This document shows positions 27,328 through 50,592 of a stretch of DNA of 64,000 bases, one piece after another. Source of the DNA: Nitrosopumilus sp. (GTDB lineage: Archaea > Thermoproteota > Nitrososphaeria > Nitrososphaerales > Nitrosopumilaceae); NCBI GenBank assembly GCA_965203315.1, contig OZ241857.1, positions 1,760,001 through 1,824,000 on the forward strand. Reading direction: 5' to 3'. The notes under the pieces are model-generated. The model was not told the origin of the DNA and made no database searches. It saw only the letters and a program-made list of their open reading frames with translations. The position numbers and the translations under genes were made by a program. The first letter of the stretch is position 1. Every line of letters begins with the position of its first letter.

Positions 27328-27358
27328 AAGTAGCCTAAATGTGACTAGGTAATTAATG

Positions 27359-27715
27359 TTAGTGGTTTGAACTGATCTCGTCTATCTTCTTCCTTAACTC
27401 TGTGTTCTCTTTGGCGAGCTTGTCGTTCTTTGCACGCAGAGTTCGAATCGAGTCTTGTTCTGTGTATAATGGATGATTGGGATGATTTGTATTGGTTCCT
27501 GACAAGAGATCTTCTGATTGCTGCTTGGAAGCATACGTAAATCTGTCCAGTCCTCCGATGGTATCTAGTTGCTTTAGAAACTGTTCACGTATATGATCAA
27601 ATGTCATTGGTCGTGACTGGCTAGGAGGTAGTCTCGGAAACTGAAATGCCATATGTGGTATAAAAGGATCTAGTCCATAGAGCCGTTGCAAGTGCTGCAT
27701 CAATATCGAATCCAT
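27359..27715 (-). CDS. hypothetical protein with C-terminal coiled coil
   Basis: 118-aa ORF. Confidence 0.5.
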   Translation of the reverse strand: MDSILMQHLQRLYGLDPFIPHMAFQFPRLPPSQSRPMTFDHIREQFLKQLDTIGGLDRFTYASKQQSEDLLSGTNTNHPNHPLYTEQDSIRTLRAKNDKLAKENTELRKKIDEISSNH

Positions 27716-27914
27716 TCACTATGCCTAGAATAGATGGTATATTTCTGCTTTTCTTGTATGTTGTTGGATTGATATTAGACATAGTGCTCAGGCACAATCG
27801 AGGTCACGTACTGGGCGTAATCGATTGATACAACTTGGTAAAAAGTTGAACGTCTTTACTCAAATCAAATTGATCGACGATCTTTATAGAATACTGCTTG
27901 ATATTATTAGTATA

Positions 27915-28055
27915 ATGACCGAAAAGAGATGTATGAAATGCAATCAAGAGATAAGATCCAAAGATCTACACAAGATAGTAATGTATGTGATTCGAGAAAA
28001 GTTTACCGAGCACCACTACGAGCATGTTGAGTGTCCAGATCGATTCACTGTATAG
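27915..28055 (+). CDS. putative small zinc-binding protein
   Basis: MTEKRCMKCNQEI...HYEHVECP (CxxC...HxxC); TTTATA upstream. Confidence 0.6.
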   Translation: MTEKRCMKCNQEIRSKDLHKIVMYVIREKFTEHHYEHVECPDRFTV

Positions 28056-28056
28056 T

Positions 28057-28836
28057 TTAATCCACGCATTCGTAAACTCTGTATGTCTCGCCGGTTCGTC
28101 TAGATCTGTACTTCCATTCATTATTCTTCCATATTATTTCTGAAAAGTTTCTTTGAGAGTTGGGATGTAGTCGTTTAAAGACATCTCCTCCAATCAATAT
28201 CTGATTAGGTTTTGCCATCGATTGGATCTTTGCTGCAATATTCATTACTGGTCCAATCAGATCGACTTGAGAGTATTGTACATCTGCGCCATATCTTACA
28301 ACCATGTTCTCACCATAATCTATACCGATCTTTATCCTGAGATCTGGATAGTCGTACTGGTTTAGGATCGGATTGATTCCCTTCTTTATTATGGTGATCA
28401 TTGACTTTGCACAGTTTATTGCATTCTCTACTGCAAGTAGACCGTTATATTCTCCCACAAAGTAACCGATCACAGCATCGCCGACAAACTTTAAGACATA
28501 TCCATGATGCTGTTGTATCACGGATGCCATCTCTTGTGTAAAAGAACTGATGATTATTGCAATTTTTTCTCCTGGCATCTCTAGGGTCATTGTAGTTGAT
28601 CCTACTAGATCGACATAGAGGACAACCATGTCCATCTTTGTAAAGACATTCTTGCGTAGAAATCTGTCGGACTCGTTGGTTACGCCAGAATATTCATATC
28701 CTCGTTTCAATGCAGCCCAGACTCGCTTTTGAGTCTCTAGAATCATGGTCTCAGTGTCTAGTGTCTTTTCCGTACTTGTACCTAACAACATGTCTATTGT
28801 ATTGTTATCTGTATTTTTTGATTGATCTTGATCCAT
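28057..28836 (-). CDS. class III adenylate/guanylate cyclase domain protein
   Basis: VLYVDLVGST, VLKFVGDAVIGYF, IKIGIDYG, DLIGPVMNIAAKIQS. Confidence 0.92.
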   Translation of the reverse strand: MDQDQSKNTDNNTIDMLLGTSTEKTLDTETMILETQKRVWAALKRGYEYSGVTNESDRFLRKNVFTKMDMVVLYVDLVGSTTMTLEMPGEKIAIIISSFTQEMASVIQQHHGYVLKFVGDAVIGYFVGEYNGLLAVENAINCAKSMITIIKKGINPILNQYDYPDLRIKIGIDYGENMVVRYGADVQYSQVDLIGPVMNIAAKIQSMAKPNQILIGGDVFKRLHPNSQRNFSEIIWKNNEWKYRSRRTGETYRVYECVD

Positions 28837-29036
28837 GTATATCTCCTACTCTAATGGAAAATCTATTCCACATCGCTCACATTTACCTCTATCTCCTCGA
28901 TACGTTCTATGATAGTATATGACTATCTTTGTTTTACATAGTTCACAGACAAATGTTCTACCCACACATAGTTTTAGAATACAAACTATTTAGATATTGA
29001 TGAAGATTTAAGGAGGGACTAGACATACTATGTTTT

Positions 29037-29894
29037 ATGAGACTAGGAATTCAAACCCAAGATGAGTTTATCGAACTGTTGAACCGACGTTATCTAGAGA
29101 TCCAAAACGAGTTTCTAGTAAAGGTACAGCATCTGTCTAGTACAGTAACGATCAAGGCTATGATGGGCGACTCGACCGTAACAGAACCCCTTACTTTTGA
29201 TCCCAAAAGAATTGCCGACTTTATTCAACATGTAATCAGGAGCCTAGGTGACTGGTCTGTGCAAGGCGTGACGACATCTAGCGTCGGTGATATTAGACGA
29301 ATATTTGCAAAGTTTGAGATCACGCACGACAACTATATGATATCAGGTCATATGTCTATACAATTTCATGTATTGTTGTACTATAAACCAACTCAACGTG
29401 TACTCGATTGCCAAAAAGAGATTGCAGAGATCATCGATCAAACAAAGGGTAAGGAAGAACGGTTAGCTGATGACAGTGACGATCTTGTTCTAGACAGACT
29501 AAAGGCGCGAGGATACAAAAACCTTGATCACCAAAATCTCTTTGAGATATTATACAAAGATGATAAACTATGTTCATCTATATATGCAGAGATCGAAGAG
29601 TCTCAAGACGTTGACTTTAAACAGCTAGAAGAAAAGAAATCCAAACTCTTTGCAGAATTAGATTCATTATTGATCGAAGCATATCAGATGGAACCTGTTC
29701 TTATAGATGATAATAGATTGATCACTGGCGAAGAGGGATGTCTATGTACAGTCGATCTAGAGTTTGTAAAAGACAACACAAGAGAGGGGCTGTTTGATAC
29801 TGTGTCTATCCCTGCAACCACAAAGGACGCTATTCTCAAGCGTTTGGAAGAGCTGTACAATACTGTAAAATCTTACAACCTACAACATGGTTAA
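29037..29894 (+). CDS. hypothetical protein
   Basis: 285-aa ORF upstream of sucCD. Confidence 0.7.
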   Translation: MRLGIQTQDEFIELLNRRYLEIQNEFLVKVQHLSSTVTIKAMMGDSTVTEPLTFDPKRIADFIQHVIRSLGDWSVQGVTTSSVGDIRRIFAKFEITHDNYMISGHMSIQFHVLLYYKPTQRVLDCQKEIAEIIDQTKGKEERLADDSDDLVLDRLKARGYKNLDHQNLFEILYKDDKLCSSIYAEIEESQDVDFKQLEEKKSKLFAELDSLLIEAYQMEPVLIDDNRLITGEEGCLCTVDLEFVKDNTREGLFDTVSIPATTKDAILKRLEELYNTVKSYNLQHG

Positions 29895-29922
29895 TAAATA
29901 CCGTAGAATGCATACAACTAGA

Positions 29923-31026
29923 TTGCGTTTATTAGAGTTTCAAGCTAAAGAATTGTTTCGAGAGTATGGCATAAATCTTCTTGACGGCAGATCATCTACT
30001 AGTATAGAAACAGCAAGGATGCATGCCAAAGAACTCGGCTATCCCTTTGTCATCAAGATTCAAGTTCCAGTTGGTGGACGTGGTAAGGCTGGCGGGATCA
30101 AGATATGTCACAACGAAGACGAATTTGAACTATGGTACCCTCAAGTGATGGATCTTGTCATAAAGGGAGAACGAGCAAGAGCAATCTTGCTAGAAAAGAT
30201 GGCAGATATCAAAAAAGAACTTTATGTATCTCTGTTCTTGAATCGCTCCAAACGTTGCTATACAGTGATCGCTTCATCCGAAGGTGGTGTTGAGATCGAG
30301 TCGGTTAAAGATCAGATAATAGTTGAAGTTGGCTTGGGCGATGTACCGATCGAGACTGCTTGTGAGATTGCAACCAAGATGGGTCTAGAGGGCAAGATAG
30401 CTGATGGTTTTGTGGATACATTGTCGAAACTATCTAAACTTACAGTAGAACGAGAGGCAGAACTTGCTGAGATAAACCCACTTGCAATAACTACACATGA
30501 TGAGATAATAGCACTAGATGGCAAGTTTGTAACTGATGACAACAGTAACTTTCGACATGCCGAACTACAAAAGTATCAAGAAAAGTCGGCTATTGAAGAA
30601 CGTGCAGAGAAGAGTGGGTTTTCATTGGTTGAGCTAGATGGAGATATTGCTGTAGTGGGAAACGGCGCTGGTCTAGTAATGTCTACCCTAGACATGTTGT
30701 CTGATAATGGTGGCAAACCTGCATGTTTTCTAGATGTTGGCGGTGGCGCAACTATCGAGTCTGTATATGAAGCTCTAGATCTATTGAGCAAGATAGATGG
30801 TGTAAGGGGAATCTTGGTAAACCTCTACGGCGGAATAGTAAAGACAACTGTGGTTGCGCAAGCGTTTCTAAAGGCATATGAGGATAATCTGATAGACCTG
30901 CCAGTCTTTGCACGACTCAAGGGTACCGAGTCTGAGAAGGCACGAGATATGTTACAAGACTCTAGAACAAAGATATTTGGAACTGTTGAAGATGCGATAA
31001 ACGCAGCTGTAATGGAGACGAAATGA
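29923..31026 (+). CDS. sucC: succinyl-CoA synthetase beta subunit
   Basis: RLLEFQAKELF, GGRGKAGG, EINPL, GNGAGL, FLDVGGG; start taken as TTG 29923. Confidence 0.95.
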   Translation: MRLLEFQAKELFREYGINLLDGRSSTSIETARMHAKELGYPFVIKIQVPVGGRGKAGGIKICHNEDEFELWYPQVMDLVIKGERARAILLEKMADIKKELYVSLFLNRSKRCYTVIASSEGGVEIESVKDQIIVEVGLGDVPIETACEIATKMGLEGKIADGFVDTLSKLSKLTVEREAELAEINPLAITTHDEIIALDGKFVTDDNSNFRHAELQKYQEKSAIEERAEKSGFSLVELDGDIAVVGNGAGLVMSTLDMLSDNGGKPACFLDVGGGATIESVYEALDLLSKIDGVRGILVNLYGGIVKTTVVAQAFLKAYEDNLIDLPVFARLKGTESEKARDMLQDSRTKIFGTVEDAINAAVMETK

Positions 31027-31934
31027 TCGATATATTTGAGACCTTGAGAGGTAATCCAGATCAGCCAGACTATAAACACAAGGGCGTTATCGTCCAAGGC
31101 ATTACCGGCGCATATGGTTCATTACACACACGAAATATGATCCAATATGGTACAAATATTGTGGCCGGTGTTACACCAGGCAAAGGTGGACAGAGCTTTG
31201 ATGGAATTCCTATATACGATGATGTCAAATCGGCAGTAGATGCGACCGGATCAAAGATATCGATAGTCTTTGTTCCCGCAAAGTTCTTTCTCTCAGCTGC
31301 TCGTGAAGCATTAGAATCAGGAATCAAACTCTTGATCGCGATTCCTGAACATGTTCCAGTACGCGATACAATGATAGCCCTACAGGTTGCCCAAAGACAC
31401 GGTGCTGTAATAATAGGTCCCAATACCCCAGGTATAATAATTCCAGAGATCATAAAATTAGGAATAATGCCTCCAACTCCATTCAAAGCAGGCAAGATAG
31501 CCGTTCTCTCAAAGAGTGGAACGCTTCTCTATGAGATATCAGACGCTTTGACTAGTGCAGGTTTTGGTCAATCTATCACCATCGGTATTGGAGGTGATCC
31601 GATAAACGGTACTAGACTAGTAGACGCGTTTGAGATGATAAAAGACACTCCAGACCTCGACGGACTTGTTGTTGTGGGTGAGATCGGTGGCGACTCTGAA
31701 GAGATACTTGCACAAAGAATAATCGACTCTGAATTTACTAAACCTACTGTGGCGTACATTGCTGGACGTGCAGCACCAAAAGAGAAGCGCATGGGACATG
31801 CAGGCGCAATTGTAATGGGAACATATGGATCAGCCGAGTCCAAGATATCCATGTTCAACAAGGCAAACATTCCAGTTGCCAAACGACCGTCTGAAGTACC
31901 TGTACTTCTTGCAGGCAAGATGCGATCCGATTAG
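31023..31934 (+). CDS. sucD: succinyl-CoA synthetase alpha subunit
   Basis: VQGITG, GVTPGKGG, IGPNTPG, RMGHAGA. Confidence 0.95.
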   Translation: MIDIFETLRGNPDQPDYKHKGVIVQGITGAYGSLHTRNMIQYGTNIVAGVTPGKGGQSFDGIPIYDDVKSAVDATGSKISIVFVPAKFFLSAAREALESGIKLLIAIPEHVPVRDTMIALQVAQRHGAVIIGPNTPGIIIPEIIKLGIMPPTPFKAGKIAVLSKSGTLLYEISDALTSAGFGQSITIGIGGDPINGTRLVDAFEMIKDTPDLDGLVVVGEIGGDSEEILAQRIIDSEFTKPTVAYIAGRAAPKEKRMGHAGAIVMGTYGSAESKISMFNKANIPVAKRPSEVPVLLAGKMRSD

Positions 31935-31964
31935 AATAAAAGAGAGGCCAATTGAGATTCTGCA

Positions 31965-32132
31965 ATGCCAATTACGGATCCAGAAAAGAAACGAATAGCT
32001 CAAAAGGCTAGATTGGTTATGCGCATCTGCTTTAACTGTGGGTGTAGAAACGACATTGATGCTACACGTTGTCGAAAGTGTAAGAATCCATACCTTCGAA
32101 TCAAGAACCGTAATCTAGGCGTCAAAAAGTAG
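31965..32132 (+). CDS. rpl40e: 50S ribosomal protein L40e
   Basis: MPITDPEKKRIAQKARLVMRICFNCGCRNDIDATRCRKCKNPYLRIKNRNLGVKK; not in the ORF track. Confidence 0.93.
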   Translation: MPITDPEKKRIAQKARLVMRICFNCGCRNDIDATRCRKCKNPYLRIKNRNLGVKK

Positions 32133-32375
32133 CCTGTCTTTATACTGCTTTATTGCATATCTTATGCGATTCTGATATCTGCTCAGCTTTTCAGCATCTT
32201 TGGGATCATCGATCTCTTCTAGTTCTAGTTGTAGATCCTCTGGCAGTTCTTCGTTTATCTGGTATAGTAGATTTGCTGCAGACTCGTACTGTCTCATGTT
32301 TACTGCACCGTCGTATGCTGTAACCATACGTTCTAGTACTTCAAAATCTGGCATGTACTTTATCCTGTATTGCAA
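32115..32375 (-). CDS. hypothetical protein (possible mobile/viral origin)
   Basis: Short acidic helical ORF downstream of the SSAP-like gene, overlapping the rpl40e 3' end. Confidence 0.5.
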   Translation of the reverse strand: MQYRIKYMPDFEVLERMVTAYDGAVNMRQYESAANLLYQINEELPEDLQLELEEIDDPKDAEKLSRYQNRIRYAIKQYKDRLLFDA

Positions 32376-32476
32376 TAAAAAAAGATTGTCGAGACTTTAT
32401 CTAACTGCCGTATTGATCTATGCATATTGGCATTTCTTGTTTGTGTTAAATAAAATAGATGACAGTACGCGTCATC

Positions 32477-33145
32477 TTATTTTGCAACTAGATCGTCTTT
32501 TATCTCTTCGATCAATAATGATGCTCTCTCTTTGGAGGTTGGTTTTGAGCCAGTATAACCTAATGCCTTGAGATATGCCAACTGTCTAGCAGTTGGCGGA
32601 TCTGAGTCTGTATACTCTGTGTCTAGACGTTGCATCTGTTCTTCTGCACAGTTTTTGATCATACTATCGACCTCTAGTGCTGGGATGAGCTGTCGCATTG
32701 CATTACGAACTGCTTTACCATGTGCCTTGGTTCGACCAAACTCATCATAATGTGTATACACTCTCTGTCCGGTACTCTTTTCATAATACCATGCCAAAAA
32801 GGGTGACTCGGAGACTCCGATTACGACTGCTCCTGTCCCCGCATTTCTAACTGTTGCCTTACTGTACCATATCCATTGAGACTTGTCATCTGGATCGTGT
32901 TTGATAAGTTCAATATTTGACTCTACTACCTCTAGTGGTTGACCGTTCTCTCCCATTCTCTGTGCGATCCATTGTATGCCTGTATATGATAACTCGCGGT
33001 TTCCTCTTTTGTTCACATACACTAGCGCTTGAATGAGTTCTTGTGACGCATTGACGATCTGGTTGCTATCTTCTTGTTCATATGCTTTGATATCAGATAT
33101 GTCTGTCAAATTATATCTCTTTGAACACATCTGTCTTTTAATCAT
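32477..33145 (-). CDS. putative Rad52/Sak-like single-strand annealing protein
   Basis: LSYTGI..IA, three predicted beta strands, then helix GRTKAHGKAVRNAMRQLIP; C-terminal PPTARQLAYLKALG...ASLLIEEI tail seen in phage proteins. Confidence 0.5.
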   Translation of the reverse strand: MIKRQMCSKRYNLTDISDIKAYEQEDSNQIVNASQELIQALVYVNKRGNRELSYTGIQWIAQRMGENGQPLEVVESNIELIKHDPDDKSQWIWYSKATVRNAGTGAVVIGVSESPFLAWYYEKSTGQRVYTHYDEFGRTKAHGKAVRNAMRQLIPALEVDSMIKNCAEEQMQRLDTEYTDSDPPTARQLAYLKALGYTGSKPTSKERASLLIEEIKDDLVAK

Positions 33146-33149
33146 CCAT

Positions 33150-33212
33150 CATATACTGTATATACGATATATACAATGTATACTATGGATACTACACATA
33201 TTATACATACTG
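33150..33212. repeat. seven degenerate 9-bp tandem units (core ATAC)
   Basis: catatactg tatatacga tatatacaa tgtatacta tggatacta cacatatta tacatactg. Confidence 0.7.
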
Positions 33213-33528
33213 TTATCAGTTGCTGGGAGCGATCATCTCTGTGTTGGTTATAACACCTCCTGAGCAGTATTGAACGGTCTAATCAAAGACTAGAAAATTT
33301 ACACTATTTAACATGTGCAGGTGTTGCAAATGTTCACAGGAAAAGGTAGGTAGAAGGTCTTTGTTCGTGGATCGGTTCTAGTGGTTCTAATAGCGGTGGT
33401 TTTGGTGAAATCTCTCCAATTAATGACTCAAAGGATCTAGTCATCTTGATGTAACTTGTCAACTCTATCTCGTAATAGTAATGTGATAGTCTACCGATTC
33501 CACACCTTGCTAGAACCTGCAAGATACT

Positions 33529-33553
33529 TTTATAAGATACGGGGGGGGGGGGG
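33529..33553 (+). promoter_or_regulatory. TATA box followed by a G13 homopolymer
   Basis: TTTATA 33529-33534, AGATAC, G13 33541-33553, then 8 nt to the TTG start. Confidence 0.75.
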
Positions 33554-33561
33554 AGTGCTTA

Positions 33562-36500
33562 TTGCTCAAGCGTCGTTTGATCTTTCTGATAGTCTTGTTA
33601 GCAGTTGTCCCATTTTTAATAGTCTATACGCCTGATGCATATGCGACCCCGCTGTACCTACCACCACCTAGTGGTTTTCCTACTTCTCTTACTACAAGTG
33701 AAGCTCCATACATGTCAGCTCAACTAGCTAGCGACAGTGGAACAATTGGTGCTACCAGCGCCAAACGATATCAGATAGACGGTAATCAAAACGTACCGGT
33801 CAAGGCAGGCGATATCTACATACAGGGTACTACAACGATAATATCCAATCCATTCTTTGTAGGAAAGGGTTACACATGTCCTTTTAATGTATTCTCACTC
33901 CCTACTGAACGCACTTTTCATGGAGGTGGTTTTGCTTATCCGACCAATGTACAGCCGACAGGTAATGCAACCAATCCCGCATCACTGACATTTCATGGAG
34001 ACTCTACTTGTGCAAACTGGTCTCCTACACATCCAATGATAACAGACAAAGAGATGCGAATCACTCTAGACAATAAAACAGGCAGTAAAGCTTGGTATGC
34101 ATCACCTCGTCAAAACATAACCGAAGCTCAGCCAATTCCTGCATGTACTGCCGATACCATAAATATCAGTACCGGTAAACTCAAGGGCAACACAAAGATG
34201 TGTTATGGTGTATACCAGGACGATCTGATCATCGTAACCAAGAGATTCTTGGGATACTATGGATCTGCGGATACAATTACGACACCACAGAATCCGGTAG
34301 ACCTTGATTCTGATGGATATTCAATTCCTTCAGGTACACTGTCCATACCACCACCTAGTGGTTTTCCTACTTCTCTTACTACAAGTGAAGCTCCATACAT
34401 GTCAGCTCAACTAGCTAGCGACAGTGGAACAATTGGTGCTACCAGCGCCAAACGATATCAGATAGACGGTAATCAAAACGTACCGGTCAAGGCAGGCGAT
34501 ATCTACATACAGGGTACTACAACGATAATATCCAATCCATTCTTTGTAGGAAAGGGTTACACATGTCCTTTTAATGTATTCTCACTCCCTACTGAACGCA
34601 CTTTTCATGGAGGTGGTTTTGCTTATCCGACCAATGTACAGCCGACAGGTAATGCAACCAATCCCGCATCACTGACATTTCATGGAGACTCTACTTGTGC
34701 AAACTGGTCTCCTACACATCCAATGATAACAGACAAAGAGATGCGAATCACTCTAGACAATAAAACAGGCAGTAAAGCTTGGTATGCATCACCTCGTCAA
34801 AACATAACCGAAGCTCAGCCAATTCCTGCATGTACTGCCGATACCATAAATATCAGTACCGGTAAACTCAAGGGCAACACAAAGATGTGTTATGGTGTAT
34901 ACCAGGACGATCTGATCATCGTAACCAAGAGATTCTTGGGATACTATGGATCTGCGGATACAATTACGACACCACAGAATCCGGTAGACCTTGATTCTGA
35001 TGGATATTCAATTCCTTCAGGTACACTGTCCATACCACCACCTAGTGGTTTTCCTACTTCTCTTACTACAAGTGAAGCTCCATACATGTCAGCTCAACTA
35101 GCTAGCGACAGTGGAACAATTGGTGCTACCAGCGCCAAACGATATCAGATAGACGGTAATCAAAACGTACCGGTCAAGGCAGGCGATATCTACATACAGG
35201 GTACTACAACGATAATATCCAATCCATTCTTTGTAGGAAAGGGTTACACATGTCCTTTTAATGTATTCTCACTCCCTACTGAACGCACTTTTCATGGAGG
35301 TGGTTTTGCTTATCCGACCAATGTACAGCCGACAGGTAATGCAACCAATCCCGCATCACTGACATTTCATGGAGACTCTACTTGTGCAAACTGGTCTCCT
35401 ACACATCCAATGATAACAGACAAAGAGATGCGAATCACTCTAGACAATAAAACAGGCAGTAAAGCTTGGTATGCATCACCTCGTCAAAACATAACCGAAG
35501 CTCAGCCAATTCCTGCATGTACTGCCGATACCATAAATATCAGTACCGGTAAACTCAAGGGCAACACAAAGATGTGTTATGGTGTATACCAGGACGATCT
35601 GATCATCGTAACCAAGAGATTCTTGGGATACTATGGATCTGCGGATACAATTACGACACCACAGAATCCGGTAGACCTTGATTCTGATGGATATTCAATT
35701 CCTTCAGGTACACTGTCCATACCACCACCTAGTGGTTTTCCTACTTCTCTTACTACAAGTGAAGCTCCATACATGTCAGCTCAACTAGCTAGCGACAGTG
35801 GAACAATTGGTGCTACCAGCGCCAAACGATATCAGATAGACGGTAATCAAAACGTACCGGTCAAGGCAGGCGATATCTACATACAGGGTACTACAACGAT
35901 AATATCCAATCCATTCTTTGTAGGAAAGGGTTACACATGTCCTTTTAATGTATTCTCACTCCCTACTGAACGCACTTTTCATGGAGGTGGTTTTGCTTAT
36001 CCGACCAATGTACAGCCGACAGGTAATGCAACCAATCCCGCATCACTGACATTTCATGGAGACTCTACTTGTGCAAACTGGTCTCCTACACATCCAATGA
36101 TAACAGACAAAGAGATGCGAATCACTCTAGACAATAAAACAGGCAGTAAAGCTTGGTATGCATCACCTCGTCAAAACATAACCGAAGCTCAGCCAATTCC
36201 TGCATGTACTGCCGATACCATAAATATCAGTACCGGTAAACTCAAGGGCAACACAAAGATGTGTTATGGTGTATACCAGGACGATCTGATCATCGTAACC
36301 AAGAGATTCTTGGGATACTATGGATCTGCGGATACAATTACGACACCACAGAATCCGGTAGACCTTGATTCTGATGGATATTCAATTCCTTCAGGTACAC
36401 TGTCCATACCACCACCTAGTGGTTTTCCTCCTACACTTACTACAAGTGATGTTCCATACCTGACAACTAGTCTTAATATCGACACTGGAACACTTGGTAC

Positions 36501-39500
36501 AAGTGCAAAGAGATATCAGATAGATGGTACCCAACCTGGTTCACCGGTCAAGGCAGGTGATATCCATATACAAGGTACGACAACAATACTCTCAAATCCG
36601 GTACTCTTTGATCTCTCAACAACATGTGCTTTTAATATCGTATCACTTCCTGCTCTAAGTACTGCTTTTCCAACCAATGTACAACCAGCAGGTAATGCAA
36701 CCAATCCGGCATCGATTGCATTTAGTGGACAATCTTCTTGTGCAAGCTTGTCTCCTACACATCCAATGATAACAGACAAAGAGATGCGAATTACTCTGAC
36801 CAATAAAACAGGCAGTAAAGCTTGGTATGCATCACCTCGTCAAAACATAACCGAAGCTCAGCCGATCCCTGCGTGTACTGCCGATACCATAAATGTCAGT
36901 ACCGGTAAACTCAAGGGCAACACAAAGATGTGTTATGGTGTATATGACGGTGAACTGATCATCATAACCAAGAGATTCTTTGGACAATATGGATCTGCTG
37001 ACACCATTACACCACCACAGAATCCAGTTGATCTCGATTCAGACAAGCCCACATCTGCGACCCCTGTACCTACGACCCCTCCGCCCACACCCGGACAGAC
37101 CCTGACGATAACCATACCTGTACCCAATGATGGTAACATTACCAGTGCGCCCCTCAGTCTCGACCACAATACGCCCAACAAGGCACGATTCATCAATAAT
37201 GAAGTTTCACCAGGATCTGGCACTAGGTATCATGATTTAATTGATGGACAATTAGGCAACATTACGATTCATTACAACACAAATATCACTAGCCAAACGT
37301 TTACTGTACCCTCAAATCCTGTTAATTACTGTTATACTGCCCAGGCAAAGGTGGGGCAATTCACATTCTCTGTGCCAAAGATAAACTCCTATATCGTCCT
37401 AGTATACCTAGATATCTCAAAAAACACTGAACAACGCTGTAGTGATGCTCCTGACATATCATTTAACGGTAAATTAACGCTAGACAAAGAGGTCTACATA
37501 AAACTGACTGGGACAGACGGACAAAATATCTTTTATCATGTGAGCGGTACAGATACGCCAGTAGAGATACCAAAGTGTACCAGTACCAACTTTGATTCTA
37601 CAGACAATACACTAAAGGGCAATACAGAGGTATGTTACGGCAAAGACGGTGCAGATACTGTCATCGTATCCAAGATACTTGCACGCTTTGGAGCCACAAC
37701 GGAGTCTATTCCAAAGTCTAGTACACCAGATCCAAGCAGCCAAGAACTGTTGACCATACCGCCAAAGACCAACTCTACAGTTGACGGTGCAGTACAATTT
37801 AACTCGGACAAATTTAATAGCGGCAAGATATTCTATAGTGGCTCCGATATGAGATTTCTGGACAAGCCAAACCCTACAGGTGATATCTATATAGAATCAA
37901 ATACTGAAACACTCCCGAACTCTCTATTTGTGATTACTGATGATTACGCATGTGATGCAACACTTGATCCTATTAAAAGTCTCAAGAAAAAACAGGTTCC
38001 AAATTTTGCCATACCAGACAATATATCTCCTAAACAAAAGAATAAACTATTTGGATTCGGTCTAGACTTTGAAGCTCCATGTTCCACACCAAGTCCAGAA
38101 ACTCCATCTAACCAAACCATATTCACCGACAAAGAGATGCGAGTTACTCTATACGGCAAGGCAGACAAAAAGCCCTACTATTTCTCACCACGTGACGGAA
38201 TACTAGAAGCACAACCCATACCCGCATGTACCAGTGATATCATCCACACAAGCAACTATACTTTACGAGGCGACAATACCATCTGTTATGGTAAACACGG
38301 AGATGATCTAGTCATTATAACAAAACGATTGGCTGGATTTTATGGTGCGGCCAACAAAGTCACCACACCTACAAATCCGGTAAACCTCAATGCAGATCCT
38401 CCATATCCCTCTCCCAAGGTACCTCGTGAGACCGATCTTTTACGACTGTCACCTCCTGCAAACTTTCCTGCACTGAATACAGATGGCAGATCTCTGTCGG
38501 TGACATCTGATCCGACTACTGCTCCTGGCGCATACTTGGCAGGCAATGATCGTGAGCGATACACTGGTCATCAAAACACTAGAATAGGCGACATGCATAT
38601 AAAAAACGATACAAAGATACTCCCCAACGAGTTTCCAGAGACGAGTACGTGTAGAGCTCAATTCAGAACCGTCAACGTTCTGATTGCCGATGACAATTAT
38701 GGAAATCTCACTCTTAAAGTACCTGCCAATCTAGTAGCAGACTCGGGTTCGTTTGGACCAAACTTTCTTGCAAGCGATACATGTAAGATTGATCTTACCA
38801 AAAACTCTGCCAAACCTCTCCTAACAGACAAAGAGTTGTGGTTTACTCTATACAACAAGGTAAATGAACACCCATACTATTTCTCGCCTCGTGAAAACAT
38901 AACAGATGCTCAACCAATTCCTGCGTGTACAACCGAGACACTTGACAAAAGCGACAATACCCTCAAGGGTGATACTATTATGTGCTTTGCTAAACATACC
39001 AACGACAACGATATCGTCATTATAACAAAACGGCTTAGTGGATTTTATGGAGCAGCTGCTCTGATACTCGAACCTGCAACTCGTGCAACACTCAATCCAG
39101 TTACACCCAGCACACCAGTCCCACCTAGCGGCACAGTTCCAGTTACTGTACCTGTTACTGTACCTGTTACTATTGAGACAGCTTTTCCACTAGTTACTGA
39201 CCCCAAGTCTCACACACGTATGGATATACCAATAAGATCACTGGGTGCAGATGTTGGTGGTCTCTTAACTGAGAACGGCACCTTTAGACACGGATACTTG
39301 GATCTAGGTGATTCTGGCATCGAGTCGGGCTATACCGGACCCATACATGTTGGTTACGTTTACCTTCCACCAAACACAAAACTAGGTCCAAATCCGTCAT
39401 TTGCAGCTGTTGGCAAGAACACTTTTGACGCAAATCTCTTACCTACCTATATTAAACAAACCTTATTCACTGATTCCAACACGTTAGGTGTACCCGCATT

Positions 39501-40797
39501 TGGATTCTTTTACGAGCCGGGAGCCGATTATCTCGAATCTGATGACAAGGCTACAATGTTCAAACCGCACGAAACCAACTCTACTATACGTGTCGTACTG
39601 TACAACCAGACCGGCAAGGCTGGATTCTCTTACTATCCATTAGGACCAGCAAAGACGTTTACACCAGATTTCATGTCAAAATGTACTGCATCTAACTTTG
39701 ACTTTACTACTCTATTACTAAAAGGCGACACCAAAGACTGCTATTATGACAACAATCGTGACATAATCATATTTACAAAGATACTAGAGTGGTATGGTGC
39801 TGGAGATGCCCCCAGTAAATCTATGAATAAAACGACTAAATCGGATAAAAGCGATACTTTTCTGTCCCTTGCACCAACATTTGGCAGATCACAATTCACG
39901 GGTGAACAGTTGGTAACCTGTGGCTATAAAATGGACGACACTTGCCGTGATGTTACTGCATACCATGTCCGGTACGAACGAGATACAATCCAGACAAACA
40001 CAACACACACATTTGCTCTCAAGGCACATGCGCCAAATCTGTTAAACAATGTAATGCTGGCATTCAGTGTACCTACAGTTGGTGCTCCACTGAGTGCAGC
40101 AGAAGCATACATTTCCGTAAATCTTGGAATAAACTATAGCGAACCATCATACCATTACATCACAGATGTTATTATACATGACCCAAACAATATCATCGAC
40201 TATGATATACAAGGTACAACCGTATCCAAGGTATCTTGTTCTGGCGGTACACTAGAGTGTATCCAAGTAATCCTCCCAGATGTACTATTCCGTGATGTAA
40301 TGAATCACGAACCGTTTGCAATACAAGTAACAGACACGTTATCACTGAACGCAATAAACTACATGAACGAAGGCGTCTTTGTTGAAGGTACATCACTAAA
40401 CGCACCACCGACTGTACGACCAGGACTAACACTATCTGGTGACGATGGTAGACCGATAAACTTGGTACTGGTCCGTACAGACAAGGTCTCTGATCTGTGG
40501 GCTGATGCATTTGGAAACACGTGGAGTCGCAACTCGTTTGGCAACTTTGTCATTGTACAATATGCACCATACGCAGGTACCACTCCAGTGTGTACAGACA
40601 TCAATGACAGAATCTGTCCGCCATTCAAGGTCAAACTCGACTGGCACAATCAAAAGATGATAGAACTACGTGACTCGCTATACAATGCATACAAGACAGA
40701 ACCGTACGCAGAGATCGACAATATATTCACATACGAGTTTGGTGACATGGACTCTCGCACTAGAACACTGATGAATCTGGGCTGGCTGACTGAATAG
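33562..40797 (+). CDS. giant secreted/surface repeat protein (2411 aa)
   Basis: Signal peptide ending AYA; ~9 Cys-containing modules; Pro/Thr linkers; many N-x-S/T sequons; distinct C-terminal domain. Confidence 0.88.
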   Translation: MLKRRLIFLIVLLAVVPFLIVYTPDAYATPLYLPPPSGFPTSLTTSEAPYMSAQLASDSGTIGATSAKRYQIDGNQNVPVKAGDIYIQGTTTIISNPFFVGKGYTCPFNVFSLPTERTFHGGGFAYPTNVQPTGNATNPASLTFHGDSTCANWSPTHPMITDKEMRITLDNKTGSKAWYASPRQNITEAQPIPACTADTINISTGKLKGNTKMCYGVYQDDLIIVTKRFLGYYGSADTITTPQNPVDLDSDGYSIPSGTLSIPPPSGFPTSLTTSEAPYMSAQLASDSGTIGATSAKRYQIDGNQNVPVKAGDIYIQGTTTIISNPFFVGKGYTCPFNVFSLPTERTFHGGGFAYPTNVQPTGNATNPASLTFHGDSTCANWSPTHPMITDKEMRITLDNKTGSKAWYASPRQNITEAQPIPACTADTINISTGKLKGNTKMCYGVYQDDLIIVTKRFLGYYGSADTITTPQNPVDLDSDGYSIPSGTLSIPPPSGFPTSLTTSEAPYMSAQLASDSGTIGATSAKRYQIDGNQNVPVKAGDIYIQGTTTIISNPFFVGKGYTCPFNVFSLPTERTFHGGGFAYPTNVQPTGNATNPASLTFHGDSTCANWSPTHPMITDKEMRITLDNKTGSKAWYASPRQNITEAQPIPACTADTINISTGKLKGNTKMCYGVYQDDLIIVTKRFLGYYGSADTITTPQNPVDLDSDGYSIPSGTLSIPPPSGFPTSLTTSEAPYMSAQLASDSGTIGATSAKRYQIDGNQNVPVKAGDIYIQGTTTIISNPFFVGKGYTCPFNVFSLPTERTFHGGGFAYPTNVQPTGNATNPASLTFHGDSTCANWSPTHPMITDKEMRITLDNKTGSKAWYASPRQNITEAQPIPACTADTINISTGKLKGNTKMCYGVYQDDLIIVTKRFLGYYGSADTITTPQNPVDLDSDGYSIPSGTLSIPPPSGFPPTLTTSDVPYLTTSLNIDTGTLGTSAKRYQIDGTQPGSPVKAGDIHIQGTTTILSNPVLFDLSTTCAFNIVSLPALSTAFPTNVQPAGNATNPASIAFSGQSSCASLSPTHPMITDKEMRITLTNKTGSKAWYASPRQNITEAQPIPACTADTINVSTGKLKGNTKMCYGVYDGELIIITKRFFGQYGSADTITPPQNPVDLDSDKPTSATPVPTTPPPTPGQTLTITIPVPNDGNITSAPLSLDHNTPNKARFINNEVSPGSGTRYHDLIDGQLGNITIHYNTNITSQTFTVPSNPVNYCYTAQAKVGQFTFSVPKINSYIVLVYLDISKNTEQRCSDAPDISFNGKLTLDKEVYIKLTGTDGQNIFYHVSGTDTPVEIPKCTSTNFDSTDNTLKGNTEVCYGKDGADTVIVSKILARFGATTESIPKSSTPDPSSQELLTIPPKTNSTVDGAVQFNSDKFNSGKIFYSGSDMRFLDKPNPTGDIYIESNTETLPNSLFVITDDYACDATLDPIKSLKKKQVPNFAIPDNISPKQKNKLFGFGLDFEAPCSTPSPETPSNQTIFTDKEMRVTLYGKADKKPYYFSPRDGILEAQPIPACTSDIIHTSNYTLRGDNTICYGKHGDDLVIITKRLAGFYGAANKVTTPTNPVNLNADPPYPSPKVPRETDLLRLSPPANFPALNTDGRSLSVTSDPTTAPGAYLAGNDRERYTGHQNTRIGDMHIKNDTKILPNEFPETSTCRAQFRTVNVLIADDNYGNLTLKVPANLVADSGSFGPNFLASDTCKIDLTKNSAKPLLTDKELWFTLYNKVNEHPYYFSPRENITDAQPIPACTTETLDKSDNTLKGDTIMCFAKHTNDNDIVIITKRLSGFYGAAALILEPATRATLNPVTPSTPVPPSGTVPVTVPVTVPVTIETAFPLVTDPKSHTRMDIPIRSLGADVGGLLTENGTFRHGYLDLGDSGIESGYTGPIHVGYVYLPPNTKLGPNPSFAAVGKNTFDANLLPTYIKQTLFTDSNTLGVPAFGFFYEPGADYLESDDKATMFKPHETNSTIRVVLYNQTGKAGFSYYPLGPAKTFTPDFMSKCTASNFDFTTLLLKGDTKDCYYDNNRDIIIFTKILEWYGAGDAPSKSMNKTTKSDKSDTFLSLAPTFGRSQFTGEQLVTCGYKMDDTCRDVTAYHVRYERDTIQTNTTHTFALKAHAPNLLNNVMLAFSVPTVGAPLSAAEAYISVNLGINYSEPSYHYITDVIIHDPNNIIDYDIQGTTVSKVSCSGGTLECIQVILPDVLFRDVMNHEPFAIQVTDTLSLNAINYMNEGVFVEGTSLNAPPTVRPGLTLSGDDGRPINLVLVRTDKVSDLWADAFGNTWSRNSFGNFVIVQYAPYAGTTPVCTDINDRICPPFKVKLDWHNQKMIELRDSLYNAYKTEPYAEIDNIFTYEFGDMDSRTRTLMNLGWLTE
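33661..36408 (+). repeat. four apparently identical 687-bp (229-aa) tandem repeats, followed by a divergent fifth
   Basis: Units begin CCACCACCTAGTGGTTTTCCT at 33661, 34348, 35035, 35722 and 36409. Confidence 0.95.
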
Positions 40798-40803
40798 ACT
40801 AAA

Positions 40804-40980
40804 GGTTCTATTCAATTGATGGGGGTTGGCATTTTCTGCACAAAATTCTCGAAAAATTTTATAAAATATGGAAACGGCCTCATATCTGCTATCGTAAATC
40901 GCTGCTGTTTTGAGTCACACACTGTGTGTCTTTTGAGATAACGTCATCACGATCTCAACTGCCGTCAATTGAACAGAACT
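40804..40980. mobile_element. MITE family A, copy 2
   Basis: GGTTCTATTCAATTGA...GTCAATTGAACAGAACT; begins 7 nt after the giant gene's stop codon. Confidence 0.85.
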
Positions 40981-41014
40981 GTTTATTAAAAAACGATGTG
41001 TGCCAACACATTTA

Positions 41015-41272
41015 GGATCTTTTCGATTTACCTGAGACTATGTGCGTATTATTAAGAGTACCCATGCCCAATCATCAAACATGGTAACAATGAATCAATC
41101 TGTCTCTAGAAATTACACTTGTGTTTTATTGTATCTTAAAACGTGAGTATGATGTAAGAAATACGCATATGGTCTCTGGAATGAATGGTTACAAAAAAAG
41201 CACTATGCGATTACATAACAAAATTACAGAAAAACCTTGCGAAACTTGATCCCACGTAAATCGAAGAGATCC
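41015..41272. mobile_element. MITE family B, long variant (258 bp)
   Basis: TIRs GGATCTTTTCGATTTAC / GTAAATCGAAGAGATCC; the right ~100 bp match the other copies. Confidence 0.7.
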
Positions 41273-41354
41273 ATCTATAAAATTGAGTACGCAGTTCTGA
41301 CCATCACGAAATTCAACTCGATTACATAAATTAATGGGTGATTGGGAATGTTTG

Positions 41355-45218: not shown

Positions 45219-45226
45219 GGTTTGAA

Positions 45227-48200
45227 CTAGTTTACAGTTATTGTTGTTGTCTGTTGTGGAGATAGTGCAGTTGGTATAGTCAACGACTCCCATGCAAATA
45301 CGGTGATTGTGTATTCACCGGATGCAGTTGGTATCCACGACTGAGATGGACTAAACGACTGAGATGGTGTTAGTGAACCATCAATCCAAGACAGAGATAC
45401 TGTAACACCATCGCTATCTTGAATTTGTACCAAGTATGCAAATGGTTGGTCTTTGTCTTGTGTGTTTGTCAAATCTGCAGTGATCTGGACTTGTTGATCT
45501 ATTGATACCGTACTGAGTGTTGTACCTGTAGAGTCTACTATTCTCAACGACTCGATCTTTACTCGTTCTAGAGGAGGTACTATTGTTCCTATTATGGTGG
45601 TTGCAGTGATGTCTTCAGAGTCGCCTGTATTGTACGGAGCAGGTAGAGTGTTGTCGCTGTACTTTGCAGTGACTGTGTCTCCTTCTTCTGTGGATAGTTT
45701 GTGACCGCCTGATTGGACAGAGAGTCCAAAGAATACAGTACCTTCAAAGATACCACTTGCTGGTTGAGTCTCTGTTACTGTAAGGGTTATTCCACTAGGT
45801 GCACTAGAAGACCATACTTTGACCTCAAAGTTGTCTGCAGATTCTGGATTCAAGTTCATGTCGGGATCGATTACACGTAGTACGCCTGTAGCTGTAGCAG
45901 GATAACTTGCTTCTAGCCACTGAACTTCACCAATGTTCCAACGGATTAGAGCAGACTTGCGTACAGTCTCGTCGTCAGAGAACTCGAATGATACCTCGAG
46001 TCCGTCGTCGTTGTCTGTTGGTAATAGTCCATCGGTTGGTCCGTTACATCTATCACATGTACGACCTGTGACGTCTTTACCATTATAGCCTGTAGAGTTA
46101 TCATCATCTACGTCATATGAGAATCCTGTCAGTATTACTTCACCTGTAAAGATACCAGTGTTTGTACCTGTCTCTACGAGTTTGTAGTTTTTAATGTCGT
46201 CGGATCTTGTAGCAACACGTACCGGATATGGATCAGCACCAATCTCGTCTACTTGGTTTGTGTTTAGGTTGTGATCAGGAGCTGTTACAGTAATGAATAC
46301 CTTGTCGGTCCAACTGTATACGCTTTGATCTAGTTCTATTGTAGCACCAAAGTTTGATGTGAATACCGTTCTGTCGATATCTTCTGTATTATCACCTACA
46401 TAGTCTGCACCTGATGGTCCATAGTCTGTGTATTCTAGCTTGATCTCTTCGCCTCGTTCTAGTCTGTCGTTGTCTATGGCCTTGGGAACAGATATGACCA
46501 CTTGGAAGATACCTGTGCTAGGACCAGTCTCTCGTAGAGAGCCTGGTTCTGCATCGAATATACCTTCACTCAGATTCTTGGTACCTGCGTCCGAGTCCCA
46601 TTTGATCAGATCAAGTGTATATGTTTCACGTGTACCGCTGTCTAGATCAAGGTCTGGATCGATGAGTGTTACGATCATGTCCGAGCCTATAACGTATACA
46701 GACTTGTCTGTCTGTAGAGCACCGTTTCGTAGATCAAAGGTAGCAGAGTCTGTGACTGTGCGTGGGTTACCAGAAGCATCTGTTGTGTCGTTGTACTGTA
46801 CGGTGAGGATATCACCTTGTAGGATGCATGTACGGCTTGTCGTACCGTCAGATATTGTTCTACTTGGACAGTCACTACCACTTGGTCCATCTATGTAAGA
46901 TAGATCAAAGCTTACTTCAAAGACTCCAGATTCAGGAGATGTCTCTGTTAGAGCACCCAAATTCTTTGGATCACATGTACCAGTATCTCGAGCATTAGTG
47001 TACCTTAACTCTGCCAAGAGATATTCGGTATATTTTGTAGCCTTTTCAGTAGGATCTGTAGCATCAGCATGTGCCTTTTTTGCGGCATCTCGCTTTCGTT
47101 CCAACTGACTAACCTCGTCGTTTGCCTCTGATGTAGTGCCACCTGCATGACCTATTAAACACTCATCACCACTGCGAGAGACTGTTATCTTGACTGGTCC
47201 GTTTCCAGACATGCCTTCGATCTTGTCCTCGCCTGTAGGATTCAAGTTGTAGTCTGGGTCGTTTACTTGAACATAGACTTTAACTGTACCAAGTGGAAGA
47301 TTCGTTCCGGCCATGTCTAGGGCTCTTGAACCAGTTGTTGTACCCTGACCATACGGAACTGGATATACAGTTCTATCTAGCGATACAGAGCCTGTACTTG
47401 CACCAATCGATGCAGAGTCACCAGCTGTGACTATCTGACCAGATGCATCTCTAAAGTCTAGATATGTTACGCCAATATCTTTGCCGCTTGTAGGTGTGTT
47501 AGGGTTTCTCGTGTTTACTGTATCGTCGTCATTAAAGTTGCATACTTGTTTTGGTATAGAAAATGAACCTGTAAAGACTCCTGTACTGGATCCGGTCTCT
47601 TGTAGAGTGAATCCGGTTTTAGCGAGTCCGTTCTGAATGTTATTATCTAGGTCACATGCGCCAGATTTCCATCTCTCACCACCAATGGTTACTTCGAGTA
47701 GCATTCCTAGTGATTTGCCACCTGGTAGTAGAGACTTGTACTTGATACCAGCTACATTGGTTACACTCATGCCTACTTGATCTCTATCTGTGTCATTGTG
47801 GTTACTGTCCATTACTACTGTATAGGTATCAGCACGATCAGGATCTGTATTCAGATCAGAGTCCTCTAGTGTTATTACGACATTGCTGCCTACACTGTAT
47901 GTCTCTGCATTCAGAGATACCACACCACTAGAGGTTGCGATATCTTGTTGATCAGAGACCACAGCCATGTTGCCGTTCGAGTCTATGTCTGCATAGTTTA
48001 CTCGCGCGTCAGAGCCTGTAATGTCCTCAAAGGCGATGAATTTGACTTCATTGCCTGTTGGTGTGATACTATCGAATATGTATGGAGTCTTTGGGTAGTT
48101 GTTGCCTTCCATATACGAACGATCATTCACTATCATATCGAGTTGGTTTATCATGATGTACTCTAGTGTTCCTGTAAAGGTACTAGTGTTCTCACCAGTC

Positions 48201-50515
48201 TCTTCTACCTCGACTCGTATAATCTGATTTGCAACTCTCTCACTTGCTTGTGCACCATCGTCATAGAATCCATACGAGAAGAAATCTGCGACTATGGGAT
48301 ATTCTTTGCCTTCAGTGATAGTAAATGATGGTGTGGCGTGGCCATTTCCGTCTTTGATTATTATTCCCAGTGTGACTTGAGCGCTAGTACCGACCTTTGA
48401 TAGAAATTCAGAACTAGATAGTGAATATTTTAGTTCATTGTTATTTCTATCTTCGACCATAAAGCCGGTTATGTCTCTAAGGCCGGAACGAGTATCATAT
48501 GCTGAGAGTTCACTTTTGCTATTGTCTAACAGTGTTCCAAAGTAAACAACATCTCCTGTACTGTTGTGTATGTTTAGATCAACACGCATGTTGTTTGTAT
48601 CAAAGACGCCAAAGTCATAGTTGAATAGATTTCGCCCCGTAAAGTTGCCTTTATTTGAACGGTCATCGTTAATCGATCCATGTAGATCTTCTAGCGTACC
48701 TAGAGGAATAGCAATCATCCCTCCAATGAAGAAGCCAGATGCTGGTCCCGCAAGTGAAAGTGGTTCGGTATCGCGAACATCATTTGAACCATTCCATGAC
48801 AGTATGCCTCTATGACTATCATCGACTCTAAAATCTAAGTCACGTATGTATGTCCTATCATCTGGATCTATCGGATATTTCTGCCAAGAAGTACCTGGTT
48901 GTGTATATGCATATGCAGAATTGTCTTTACTGTCCATTAGTGTACGTGGGTCACCTGTCATAAATGTCGGAATTCTTGACATTGGGTCAGATACCTTTTG
49001 ATCGTCTTCTGCATCACTGTCTTTGTTTTGATCTGCATCGACTATGGTTAGGTCGATCTTTTCGCCAGAGTTCCATGTGCCGTCTGCGATATCGAGGTTT
49101 ACTGTAGCAGAGGTGAGTCGTAGGTTTACTGGCACATTATCATCACCGTATGTAATCTGTGCGTTGGTGTTTCGTGGCGCATCAGACTTTGTCATTATTG
49201 AACCACCATCATCGGCAAATTCAAAGACGCCAGTGTTTGGTCCTGTCTCTTCGAATTTGAGTGATTGTATTGTACCAGAAGTGGCAAACACATGAGTTGG
49301 TCTAGTAAATTCTACTACTGGATCATCAGTAATCTTTAGGAGACAATCATTATCACAACCTAATGCACTAGTAGTTGTTACAAATTTAGTAAACTCGTCA
49401 TCACTATATTCAACATAAATTCTAATATGCTCATCGTCTCTAGTGGTGTCATTCACCATAAAATGCATTATATCTTTAGCAGTAGGATCGATATTCAGCA
49501 CATGGTCCGTGATCGTTGGATATATGTTGGCGCCTCGTGGATAATAGTCACGATCTAGCTCAAGTGAGTGATTTGTAGATTGGTCGTATCTCACGGTTAC
49601 AGTTTGTGGATTTCCAGGCTTGTAATAGACAACTTCTACCTCATCCCCATCATCGAGATCAAGATATTTGACCATATCTTCAGATATCTTTGTATCGTTG
49701 TCATTGTCAGCTCTTGTAAGGGGCAATTCACTCAGATATCTATCCCGATAGTGAGTTTGATTATTATTAGGCGATTGCTCATTTCGAGCCCCTAACCAAA
49801 TATGATCAAATTTAGATGTAAGTTTTGATATATTTGATATCTCTTCTTAAGGTGGGAAATGACGTGTATGATGCACGGGTCTTTGATGGATACCAGCGAG
49901 AATCAGTTGATCACCAGAATATCTTTGCTAGGGACGAAGTGCACATCAACGGAATGGAAGGGTTCTGGGGCTTTACAAAATTAAACATGGTGAAGCATCG
50001 TGGGGTGAGCTCAAAGAAATTCTTACTGTATCTCAAAGAGAGGGAGTGGTGATGCAAGAACCGAGAGTGCGATCTGTTTGATTTATTGATGCAATACACG
50101 CTTAGGGGCTCGAAATGAGCAATCGCCTATTATTAATATCGCCCACAGCGCTGCCATCAGTTATATCACCATCACCGTTACCATCTTTTCCAATATCTGC
50201 AAAATAGCCATACCAAGAACCATCTCCTGCATGTTGCATTTTGAGATCTTTACCATCAACTGTGACTCTAGGCATTCCGTCACCCATATCTGTCCGTAAT
50301 GGATCACTTACAATAACCTCCACATACTGGATACCGCCAAAGGTATTGTCGAATCTAGATCCGTATCCGTTTGGATCAGCAGCTGAGACGTATAGGTTTG
50401 GTGTCGACTGGGCATATACTGGCTCCATGCTGGGTATAGCAAAGGTCAGTCCGCCTGCGACCATTATCATCATTAGTATTAAACTAGTTGTTTTTCGTCC
50501 TATTTCGTTATTCAT
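45227..50515 (-). pseudogene. S-layer protein (SlaA-like) interrupted by an IS1595-derived element; 1640 aa if the element is excised
   Basis: N-terminus MNNEIGRKTTSLILMMIMVAGGLTFAIP; repeated ETGxxTGxF Ig-like motifs; C-terminus QPFAYLVQIQD...PTALSP; the two pieces join in frame on removing 49770-50127 plus one TSD. Confidence 0.88.
49770..50127 (+). mobile_element. 358-bp non-autonomous IS1595-family derivative
   Basis: 26-bp perfect TIR GGCGATTGCTCATTTCGAGCCCCTAA; 8-bp TSD TATTATTA (49762-49769, 50128-50135); internal transposase remnant VDHQNIFARDEVHINGMEGFW...YLKEREW (49825-50052). Confidence 0.93.
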
Positions 50516-50528
50516 GTTATTAATTTAT

Positions 50529-50549
50529 CCCCCCCCCGTGCCATATAAA
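50529..50549 (-). promoter_or_regulatory. TATA box followed by a G9 homopolymer (S-layer promoter)
   Basis: Minus strand reads TTTATA-TGGCAC-G9-ATAAATTAATAAC-ATG. Confidence 0.75.
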
Positions 50550-50592
50550 GACTATGAACAATTCGTTCACTGACGTTTACGTGAGAATTATT

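Follow-up and report, generated by a model that had tools for sequence, protein, structure and literature searches.

Long runs of G or C (G/C runs) that lie between the TATA box and the start codon of genes for secreted and surface proteins in a Nitrosopumilus sp. genome are probably slipped-strand contingency loci, most of which would act as graded dials that set the output of these genes at random, a device characterised until now in bacteria. They include two promoters in a stretch of 64,000 nt (contig OZ241857.1, positions 1,760,001–1,824,000; hereafter the window), one preceding the gene of a giant secreted-type protein and the other a gene of the surface (S-) layer. The genome, here labelled G000, spans 2.47 Mb at ca. 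39% GC and encodes archaeal AmoA. A wider proposal, offered tentatively and falling somewhat short of an even call, is that several large-genome lineages of ammonia-oxidising archaea have independently evolved poly-G/C phasomes on the scale of that of Campylobacter, including an archaea-specific promoter dial, with the runs supplied by a leading-strand-specific slippage bias.

At the giant-gene site (33529–33564, plus strand) TTTATA is followed by AGATAC, G13 (33541–33553), 8 nt and the TTG of an open reading frame (ORF) of 2411 amino acids. The S-layer site (minus strand, 50549–50513) consists of TTTATA, TGGCAC, G9 (50537–50529), 13 nt and ATG. Both layouts had been described in an earlier reading of the window made without database searches (the sequence-only reading), and re-reading of the sequence reproduces them exactly, together with its statements that no other G/C run of 7 or more occurs in the window, where three further runs reach 6, and that a control promoter at 26334 has TTTAAA, 21 nt and ATG. 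TTTATA-N6-G9 is found twice in the window vs a mean of 0.00 in 100 dinucleotide shuffles. The 6-nt gap and the preceding AC, regarded in that reading as shared architecture, are present at the two window sites but do not extend to the class as a whole, since across 21 tract promoters the gap ranges from 0 to 8 nt and the preceding base is variable. The candidate view of TATA-N6-G9 as a conserved architecture was rejected, the 2 matches in 40 relatives both being T runs beside G with no promoter. Two metagenome scans for the two window promoters returned no match, and Rfam gave a single match in window positions 33000–51500, a tRNA.

Across G000, 38 G/C runs of at least 9 were observed vs 0.47 expected from extrapolation of the ca. 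5-fold drop in run counts per base between lengths 4 and 8. Their lengths form a second mode at 11–14, with 0.0004 runs of exactly 13 expected by the same extrapolation. Like the excess over the shuffles, this places the repeats far above genomic background, as is typical of contingency loci. Twenty of the runs lie in TATA-to-start spacers (20 of 30 when transposon ends are set aside), 8 in the ends of a small inverted-repeat transposon, 5 in reading frames and 3 near starts, leaving 2 unplaced. The 3 near-start runs are at most 20 nt from the start of two secreted-type genes and one adenine-methylase-like gene. Transposon-end runs resemble TTTTAA-N6-Gn, but have no gene behind them and were rejected as promoters.

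Promoters were located mechanically through a TATA-like hexamer 19–33 nt before a start (n = 294), and genes were termed secreted-type when an N-terminal hydrophobic stretch was detected by a hydropathy rule only. A run of at least 7 is present in 21 of these promoters, made up of the 20 spacers with runs of at least 9 and one G7 paralog. All 21 genes behind them encode such a hydrophobic stretch, vs 36 of the 273 without a run. The 21 promoters collapse to ca. 5 independent families, for which the chance of uniform agreement is 0.13^5, ca. 4e-5. Repeats located in the promoter or frame of surface, glycan or restriction-modification genes are a further mark of contingency loci, represented here by the 21 promoters and by five in-gene tracts. 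As assembled, all five in-gene tracts are out of frame; they fall in the signal peptide of an S-layer paralog, an adenine-methylase-like gene, two glycosyltransferase-like genes and one unknown gene, the methylase and glycosyltransferase labels being given by eye from sequence motifs, with no library search. The signal peptide of the S-layer paralog contains G12 (C1:743037–743048) and is out of frame, whereas G11 or G14 restores the frame, and with its otherwise open frame of 1768 codons the gene is a candidate for a classical frameshift switch. Of the adenine-methylase-like genes at C1:697399 and C5:308223, one is frameshifted by C10, while the other carries G11 nine bases before its TTG.

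Variation in tract length was assessed on contigs rather than reads, by alignment of those of samples X2, X4 and X5 (two studies) to the G000 loci. X2 may be the source sample of the assembly, while X3 (depth 2–5) and X6 gave no coverage of the tracts. The tracts compared with unique flanks are those of two sister promoters of the same class and not the window's own two. The first, C1:568990, has G11 in X2 (depth 361) and G9 in X4 (317.8/317.8) and X5 (56.7/56.7); the second, C1:553358, has G11 both in X2 and in X5, while X4 contains a contig with G10 (depth 243). Four X4 contigs totalling 10.9 kb contain zero substitutions and an A8 run without indel, and the other indels in this comparison fall inside multi-copy elements. 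Both tracts therefore differ in length among three samples that are otherwise identical in unique DNA, diverging between close populations far more than their flanks, as contingency loci do. The sequence-only reading had held that an invariant length would tell against switching; at these two promoters the length is not fixed.

Inflation of homopolymers by sequencing or assembly might be suspected from some fragmented congener assemblies that have G runs near contig ends, and the sequencing platforms of the sample runs are not on record. This artefact is nevertheless already largely refuted, and its probability is negligible: runs of 9–11 recur at matching positions in the contigs of three samples, which come from two studies, X5 has one tract at 11 and the other at 9, which a uniform platform bias would not produce, and a strand polarity that tracks cdc6 (described below) cannot originate in a sequencer. 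For the window itself, the X2, X4 and X5 contigs over positions 27000–34300 (7.3 kb) have all their indels in G13, although paralogs share the flanks and platform stutter is possible. Relative to G13 these are −1 (depth 527), −2 (216) and +1 (55) in X2, where single-copy DNA has a depth of 323, −1 and +1 in X4, and −1 in X5, all confounded by paralogs. G11 after AGATAC is present in no assembled copy.

The effect that such length changes may have depends on promoter geometry. The gap from TTTATA or TTTAAA to the start of 1110 ATG-started ORFs peaks at 21–27 nt with a mode of 23, as expected for leaderless genes with TATA at −27/−28, the position described for haloarchaea along with a WW element at −10/−11 (PMC2151090). 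For the giant gene this gap equals 14 + n for a run of n bases and is thus 27 at G13, where the run would span ca. −17 to −5 and the TTG would lie near +5. G9 would put the TTG at +1, and G8 or shorter would move the predicted start site inside the codon. The lengths seen, G11–G14, correspond to gaps of 25–28 nt, at or above the upper part of the peak, and keep the predicted start site ahead of the TTG. The on/off switch by displacement of the start site, which the sequence-only reading had proposed, is therefore unlikely at the giant gene, because the predicted start site passes the start codon only at ca. G8 or shorter. At C1:568990 the gap shrinks from 22 nt (G11) to 20 nt (G9), crossing the lower edge of the peak, and for promoters nearer the limit such as this one two bases more or fewer could amount to a true switch; the G7 copy of the giant-protein family (gap 20) is possibly off. 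The family lengths observed suggest that, in most copies, melting and leader length would be altered by degrees.

In the mechanism proposed, replication slippage, unchecked by MutS or NucS, would expand short leading-strand G seeds to 11–14. The start site would be fixed ca. 23–24 nt behind the TATA hexamer, and the G run would fill the melting region (ca. −17 to −5), the A/T pair at −10/−11 included. Each lost G would free the melting region and shift the start codon toward the 5′ end of a nearly leaderless mRNA, whereby the giant gene would behave as a graded dial over G9–G14 and would be off at ca. G8 or shorter. The probable benefit would be surface diversity against viruses or host.

A fixed functional element of irrelevant exact length, in which the run mimics a Shine–Dalgarno sequence 8 nt ahead of a weak TTG, is bound by a protein or forms a G-quadruplex, is very improbable. 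It would account for G13 followed by AG at ribosome-binding distance from the TTG, and fixed runs do exist in the genus: among 16 loci of tract-poor congeners, 11 share C10–12 at a single intergenic position. However, the run is upstream of the predicted start site and so would not be transcribed, C runs occur on the coding strand at the same position (C1:644372, and in G153), and most runs are shorter than the 15 bases that a three-tier quadruplex needs. The conserved C10–12 run of the tract-poor congeners is followed by T-rich DNA and stands 71–84 nt before a sufC-like start, where it is possibly a terminator of the upstream gene; G000 has no run there.

Long runs are strongly polarised with respect to replication. 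On C1, relative to cdc6 at C1:1.282 Mb, all 25 runs of at least 11 have G on the leading strand, while G4–G7 are unbiased. The second polarity switch in G000 (0.70 Mb) was chosen from the data, and in the region that it delimits, next to cdc6, 15 of 15 runs have this polarity. Only three runs of at least 9 are on the lagging strand, and these are the shortest (9, 9 and 10), the window's G9 included. If the terminus is taken to lie opposite cdc6, the leading strand carries the G in 31/31 tracts of congener G153, 30/31 of G154, 33/34 of G148 and 17/21 of G135. G147, with 35 tracts but without two clean strand blocks (cdc6 not located), is a possible exception. The 0.70-Mb switch of G000 is itself not opposite cdc6, which hints at a rearrangement, a second origin or a contig misorder. 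Neither short runs nor A/T runs show the switch at cdc6; A16, A14 and A13 occur at C1:1528987, 278293 and 257000, and A runs of 11 or more are on the leading strand in 4 of 4 cases.

Several points weigh against reading the runs as contingency loci. Fifteen of the 21 tract promoters are paralogs from one ancestor, and tract lengths in this giant-protein family are narrow (11–15 in 14 paralogs, 7 in one). Only two unique-flank tracts in three covering samples document the variation, and contigs hide rates and minor alleles. Ordinary G000 promoters lack an A/T peak at −10/−11, so that the melting argument rests on other archaea. Runs also lengthen in transposon ends, which carry G8 or more in 8 of 48 leading-strand cases and in none of 44 lagging-strand ones (p = 0.006), and in G159 the runs of IS5-like transposases have expanded as well; a long run alone is therefore no proof of selection for switching. 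Together with the leading-strand polarity, transposon-end expansion points to strand-biased replication slippage, an expansion that is driven by mutation and is not necessarily adaptive. Neither MutS nor NucS turned up in G000 or in most of the congeners examined for them, tract-poor ones included, so that the distribution of tracts among lineages is not accounted for by the lack of these proteins. A lineage-specific loss of mismatch repair was accordingly rejected as the cause, MutS being missing in 5 of 5 genomes tested including 2 tract-poor ones, and NucS_C matches, present in 22 of 89 genomes, are unrelated to tract number. Both tract-bearing S-layer copies are broken, the window's G9 copy by a 358-bp element and a G11 copy on C6 by one of ca. 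900 bp. Finally, any association with a host is putative; in their many insertion elements, methylases and S-layer copies the tract-bearing genomes resemble sponge-associated ammonia oxidisers (PMC6790972).

From the same observations a neutral by-product may be argued, in which strand-biased slippage grows any leading-strand seed of G5–6, selection clears the runs from genes that are needed, and they are tolerated in transposon ends and in the promoters of redundant paralogs, whose output would depend little on run length. Its main argument is that runs arise without selection, and while rather unlikely it ranks as a serious rival. The leading-strand-only expansion of transposon ends, the polarity of runs of at least 11 on C1 against unbiased G4–G7, the similar polarity in G153, G154, G148 and G135, and family-promoter lengths at which the predicted start site still precedes the start codon are all in its favour. 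It leaves unexplained why 21 of 21 genes in ca. 5 families are secreted-type, why 5′-end placement recurs in different secreted families (G153, G159, G017 and G154), and why signal peptides retain frameshifting tracts, some of them in the on and others in the off state. One-way silencing, by which expansion to G11–14 is a ratchet that damps or kills the promoters of surplus paralogs, in gene decay rather than reversible switching, is improbable. The breakage of both tract-promoter S-layer copies agrees with it, as do the five out-of-frame in-gene tracts of G000 and the abundance of mobile elements in this genome. Against it, the 15 giant-protein paralogs, each with a G run in its promoter, keep open frames of 583–3085 amino acids, shorter alleles dominate the other samples, and each of the 5 in-gene tracts that were classed in G153 is in frame.

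Slipped-strand contingency loci are also suggested by the genus at large, in which tracts are unevenly distributed. Among 150 congeners, 68 have no run of G10, 110 have 0–2 (hand count) and 16 have 17 or more, and 11 of these 16 are near-complete assemblies of 1.9–2.8 Mb. In G153, where 30 of 31 tracts were examined, 9 paralogs of another secreted family have TTATTTA, C11–15, 11–12 nt and the start, while 5 further tracts precede secreted proteins. G159 has 8 of 15 examined tracts in the signal-peptide region of giant secreted proteins (5 in frame, 3 out), and G017 has 9 of 23 within the first ca. 40 codons of such proteins, 2 of them out of frame. Eight loci inspected in G154 have the run 51–65 nt before giant-secreted-protein starts. 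By comparison, G156 (15 of 17 tracts examined) has little of this 5′-end placement. The different families, strands and positions involved argue for a repeated, presumably independent origin of tracts at the 5′ ends of surface genes. G154 additionally has six G10–12 tracts across 30 kb of glycosyl- and sulfotransferase-like genes (C1:303–333 kb). A scan of all species genomes for TTTATA-N6-G10 recovered at least 109 stretches, with 3 archaeal ones among the 80 matches listed. One of these 3, the Thermoplasmata contig JAFDUB010000064.1, has TTTATA, 6 nt, G10, 13 nt and the ATG of a secreted-type protein, which is the layout of the window's S-layer promoter; as a single case it could be due to chance.

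The S-layer promoter of the window is itself an unlikely switch. As assembled, its gene is truncated by the 358-bp insertion, which the sequence-only reading had missed and without which the frame is open for 1640 codons, and its G9 is probably a remnant in front of a disrupted gene. G000 contains 11 S-layer-type promoter starts (two rows share a duplicated contig start), of which 9 are intact and none of these has a tract. The intact starts carry a short TTGAT..ATCAA inverted repeat. The sequence-only reading had suggested a comparison with the slaA promoters of relatives; in 10 genomes, 25 loci yielded 9 such starts, which have the same palindrome and TATA box but an A/T-rich spacer.

Phase variation driven by repeats is well known from bacterial pathogens, as a textbook trait, and the poly-G repertoire of Campylobacter jejuni, with phase-variable mod methylases, involves surface, glycan-modifying and methylase genes. 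Like G000, it comprises tens of G9–G14 runs in an AT-rich genome. The length mode of such runs is set by slippage bias (PMC4085013; PMC3711429). In Campylobacter the runs are mostly in coding frames, whereas in G000 two thirds of those outside transposon ends lie in core promoters and they are leading-strand polarised. The nearest parallel in the way the promoters would work is Treponema pallidum tprL, whose variable poly-G lies just upstream of the start site and whose activity falls with its length, 8 G being active and 10 G near background in a reporter (PMC7864442). As in tprL and tprE/G/J, the runs here are predicted to lie near the start site of a paralogous surface-protein family with no two-box spacer, and for the tpr genes, too, an action on open-complex formation is proposed (PMC7864442). 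The run in the giant-gene promoter is predicted, from genome-wide spacing only, to end at ca. −5, which would correspond to the tpr arrangement. The tpr promoters are of the sigma-70 type with measured effects; those described here are predicted TATA/TBP promoters, in which the nearly leaderless TTG start of the giant gene would impose a second constraint, and no sigma-70 site was found on the giant-gene promoter strand. Neisseria meningitidis porA and opc likewise have a homopolymeric G/C run in a surface-gene promoter whose length changes by slippage (PMC7864442). The porA tract, however, acts through −35/−10 spacing, while the G run in G000 sits downstream of the TATA box and not between two recognition boxes. 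Since the archaeal promoter lacks a second downstream box, length can only alter melting and the distance from start site to start codon.

Archaeal precedents are of a different kind. Poly(A/T) tracts are enriched at gene 5′ ends in 18 archaeal genomes, in which G/C runs are not 5′-biased (PMC2831843), a statistical result for coding A/T runs of 5–8 and not for G runs in promoters. Phase variation of the adhesion proteins of halovirus phiCh1 appears as a reference title in PMC13437554, and concerns a viral system rather than a promoter G run in a cellular archaeon. A 2025 review places the distribution of repeat-driven phase variation in archaea under future work (PMC11868660), and a preprint asserts archaeal contingency loci, citing a 1987 title on simple repeats in archaebacteria. 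The literature searched, which had most subscription papers outside its scope, contained no case of archaeal promoter poly-G phase variation and no report of strand polarity of G tracts.

Should the archaea-specific dial be real, a run between TATA and a leaderless start would set both melting and the inclusion of the start codon in the mRNA. Should slippage be leading-strand-specific, gene orientation would decide which surface genes can become switchable. Named loci in an archaeon are at hand for which natural samples already differ in tract length, and the promoter type would offer a natural system for the control of archaeal open-complex formation and leaderless translation by G content and length. 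The polarity of long G runs also provides a readout of replication asymmetry in archaea without MutS or NucS, marking origin and terminus where GC skew is weak.

The features of the two sites and their genes are collected in Table 1.

Table 1. Features at the giant-gene and S-layer sites of the window (window positions).
Positions	Strand	Feature	Remark
33520..33540	+	Conserved promoter block of the giant-protein family: TTTATA (33529–33534) and 6-nt spacer	Putative TATA role, given the peak of such hexamers 21–27 nt before starts
33541..33553	+	G13 tract, predicted to span ca. −17 to −5	G on leading strand
33562..40797	+	Secreted-type protein of 2411 amino acids, TTG start	N-terminal hydrophobic stretch; repeated units of ca. 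190–230 amino acids
33661..36408	+	Four 687-nt tandem repeat units within the giant gene	Identical in protein sequence
45227..49769	-	3′ part of S-layer gene	PDB 8c8k 'Cell surface protein', E=0
49770..50127	.	358-bp non-autonomous insertion element interrupting the S-layer gene	Terminal inverted repeats; 8-bp target duplication
50128..50515	-	5′ part of S-layer (SlaA-type) gene	ORF enters the insertion and stops at 50102 (137 amino acids)
50529..50537	-	G9 tract, among the two shortest of the set	G on lagging strand; in place of the A/T-rich S-layer spacer of relatives
50538..50549	-	S-layer promoter: TTTATA and 6-nt spacer	
50555..50569	-	Imperfect palindrome, 5 nt before the TATA box; identifies the promoter as the homologous S-layer one	Also found in S-layer promoters of relatives

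The next in-frame Met of the giant gene is residue 51, behind the signal peptide. The protein had no Pfam match above cut-off and only lead-level matches in PDB and Atlas, with no family assigned, and a scan of genome contigs found no relatives of its C-terminal part. Contig depth over the 687-nt units relative to the flanks is ca. 4x in X2, 2x in X3 and 6–7x in X4 and X5, a weak hint, confounded by paralogs, of variation in unit number between samples.

A family of ca. 190-bp inverted-repeat elements has ca. 100 ends genome-wide, with G4–6 seeds in these ends. Copies in the window are located just upstream of the S-layer promoter (50693–50768) and directly behind the giant gene (40801–40885). 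The ends of the 358-bp element recur on elements of 907–1091 bp elsewhere. The PDB entry matched by the S-layer gene is presumably the S-layer of Nitrosopumilus maritimus. The 3′ 3.95 kb of the broken gene (45188–49138) is 98.8% identical to an intact inverted copy 40 kb away (C1:1846413–1850364). C1 and C5 (17726) have their first 17.7 kb in common, ending at an S-layer start, and the DNA upstream of that start differs between the two contigs.

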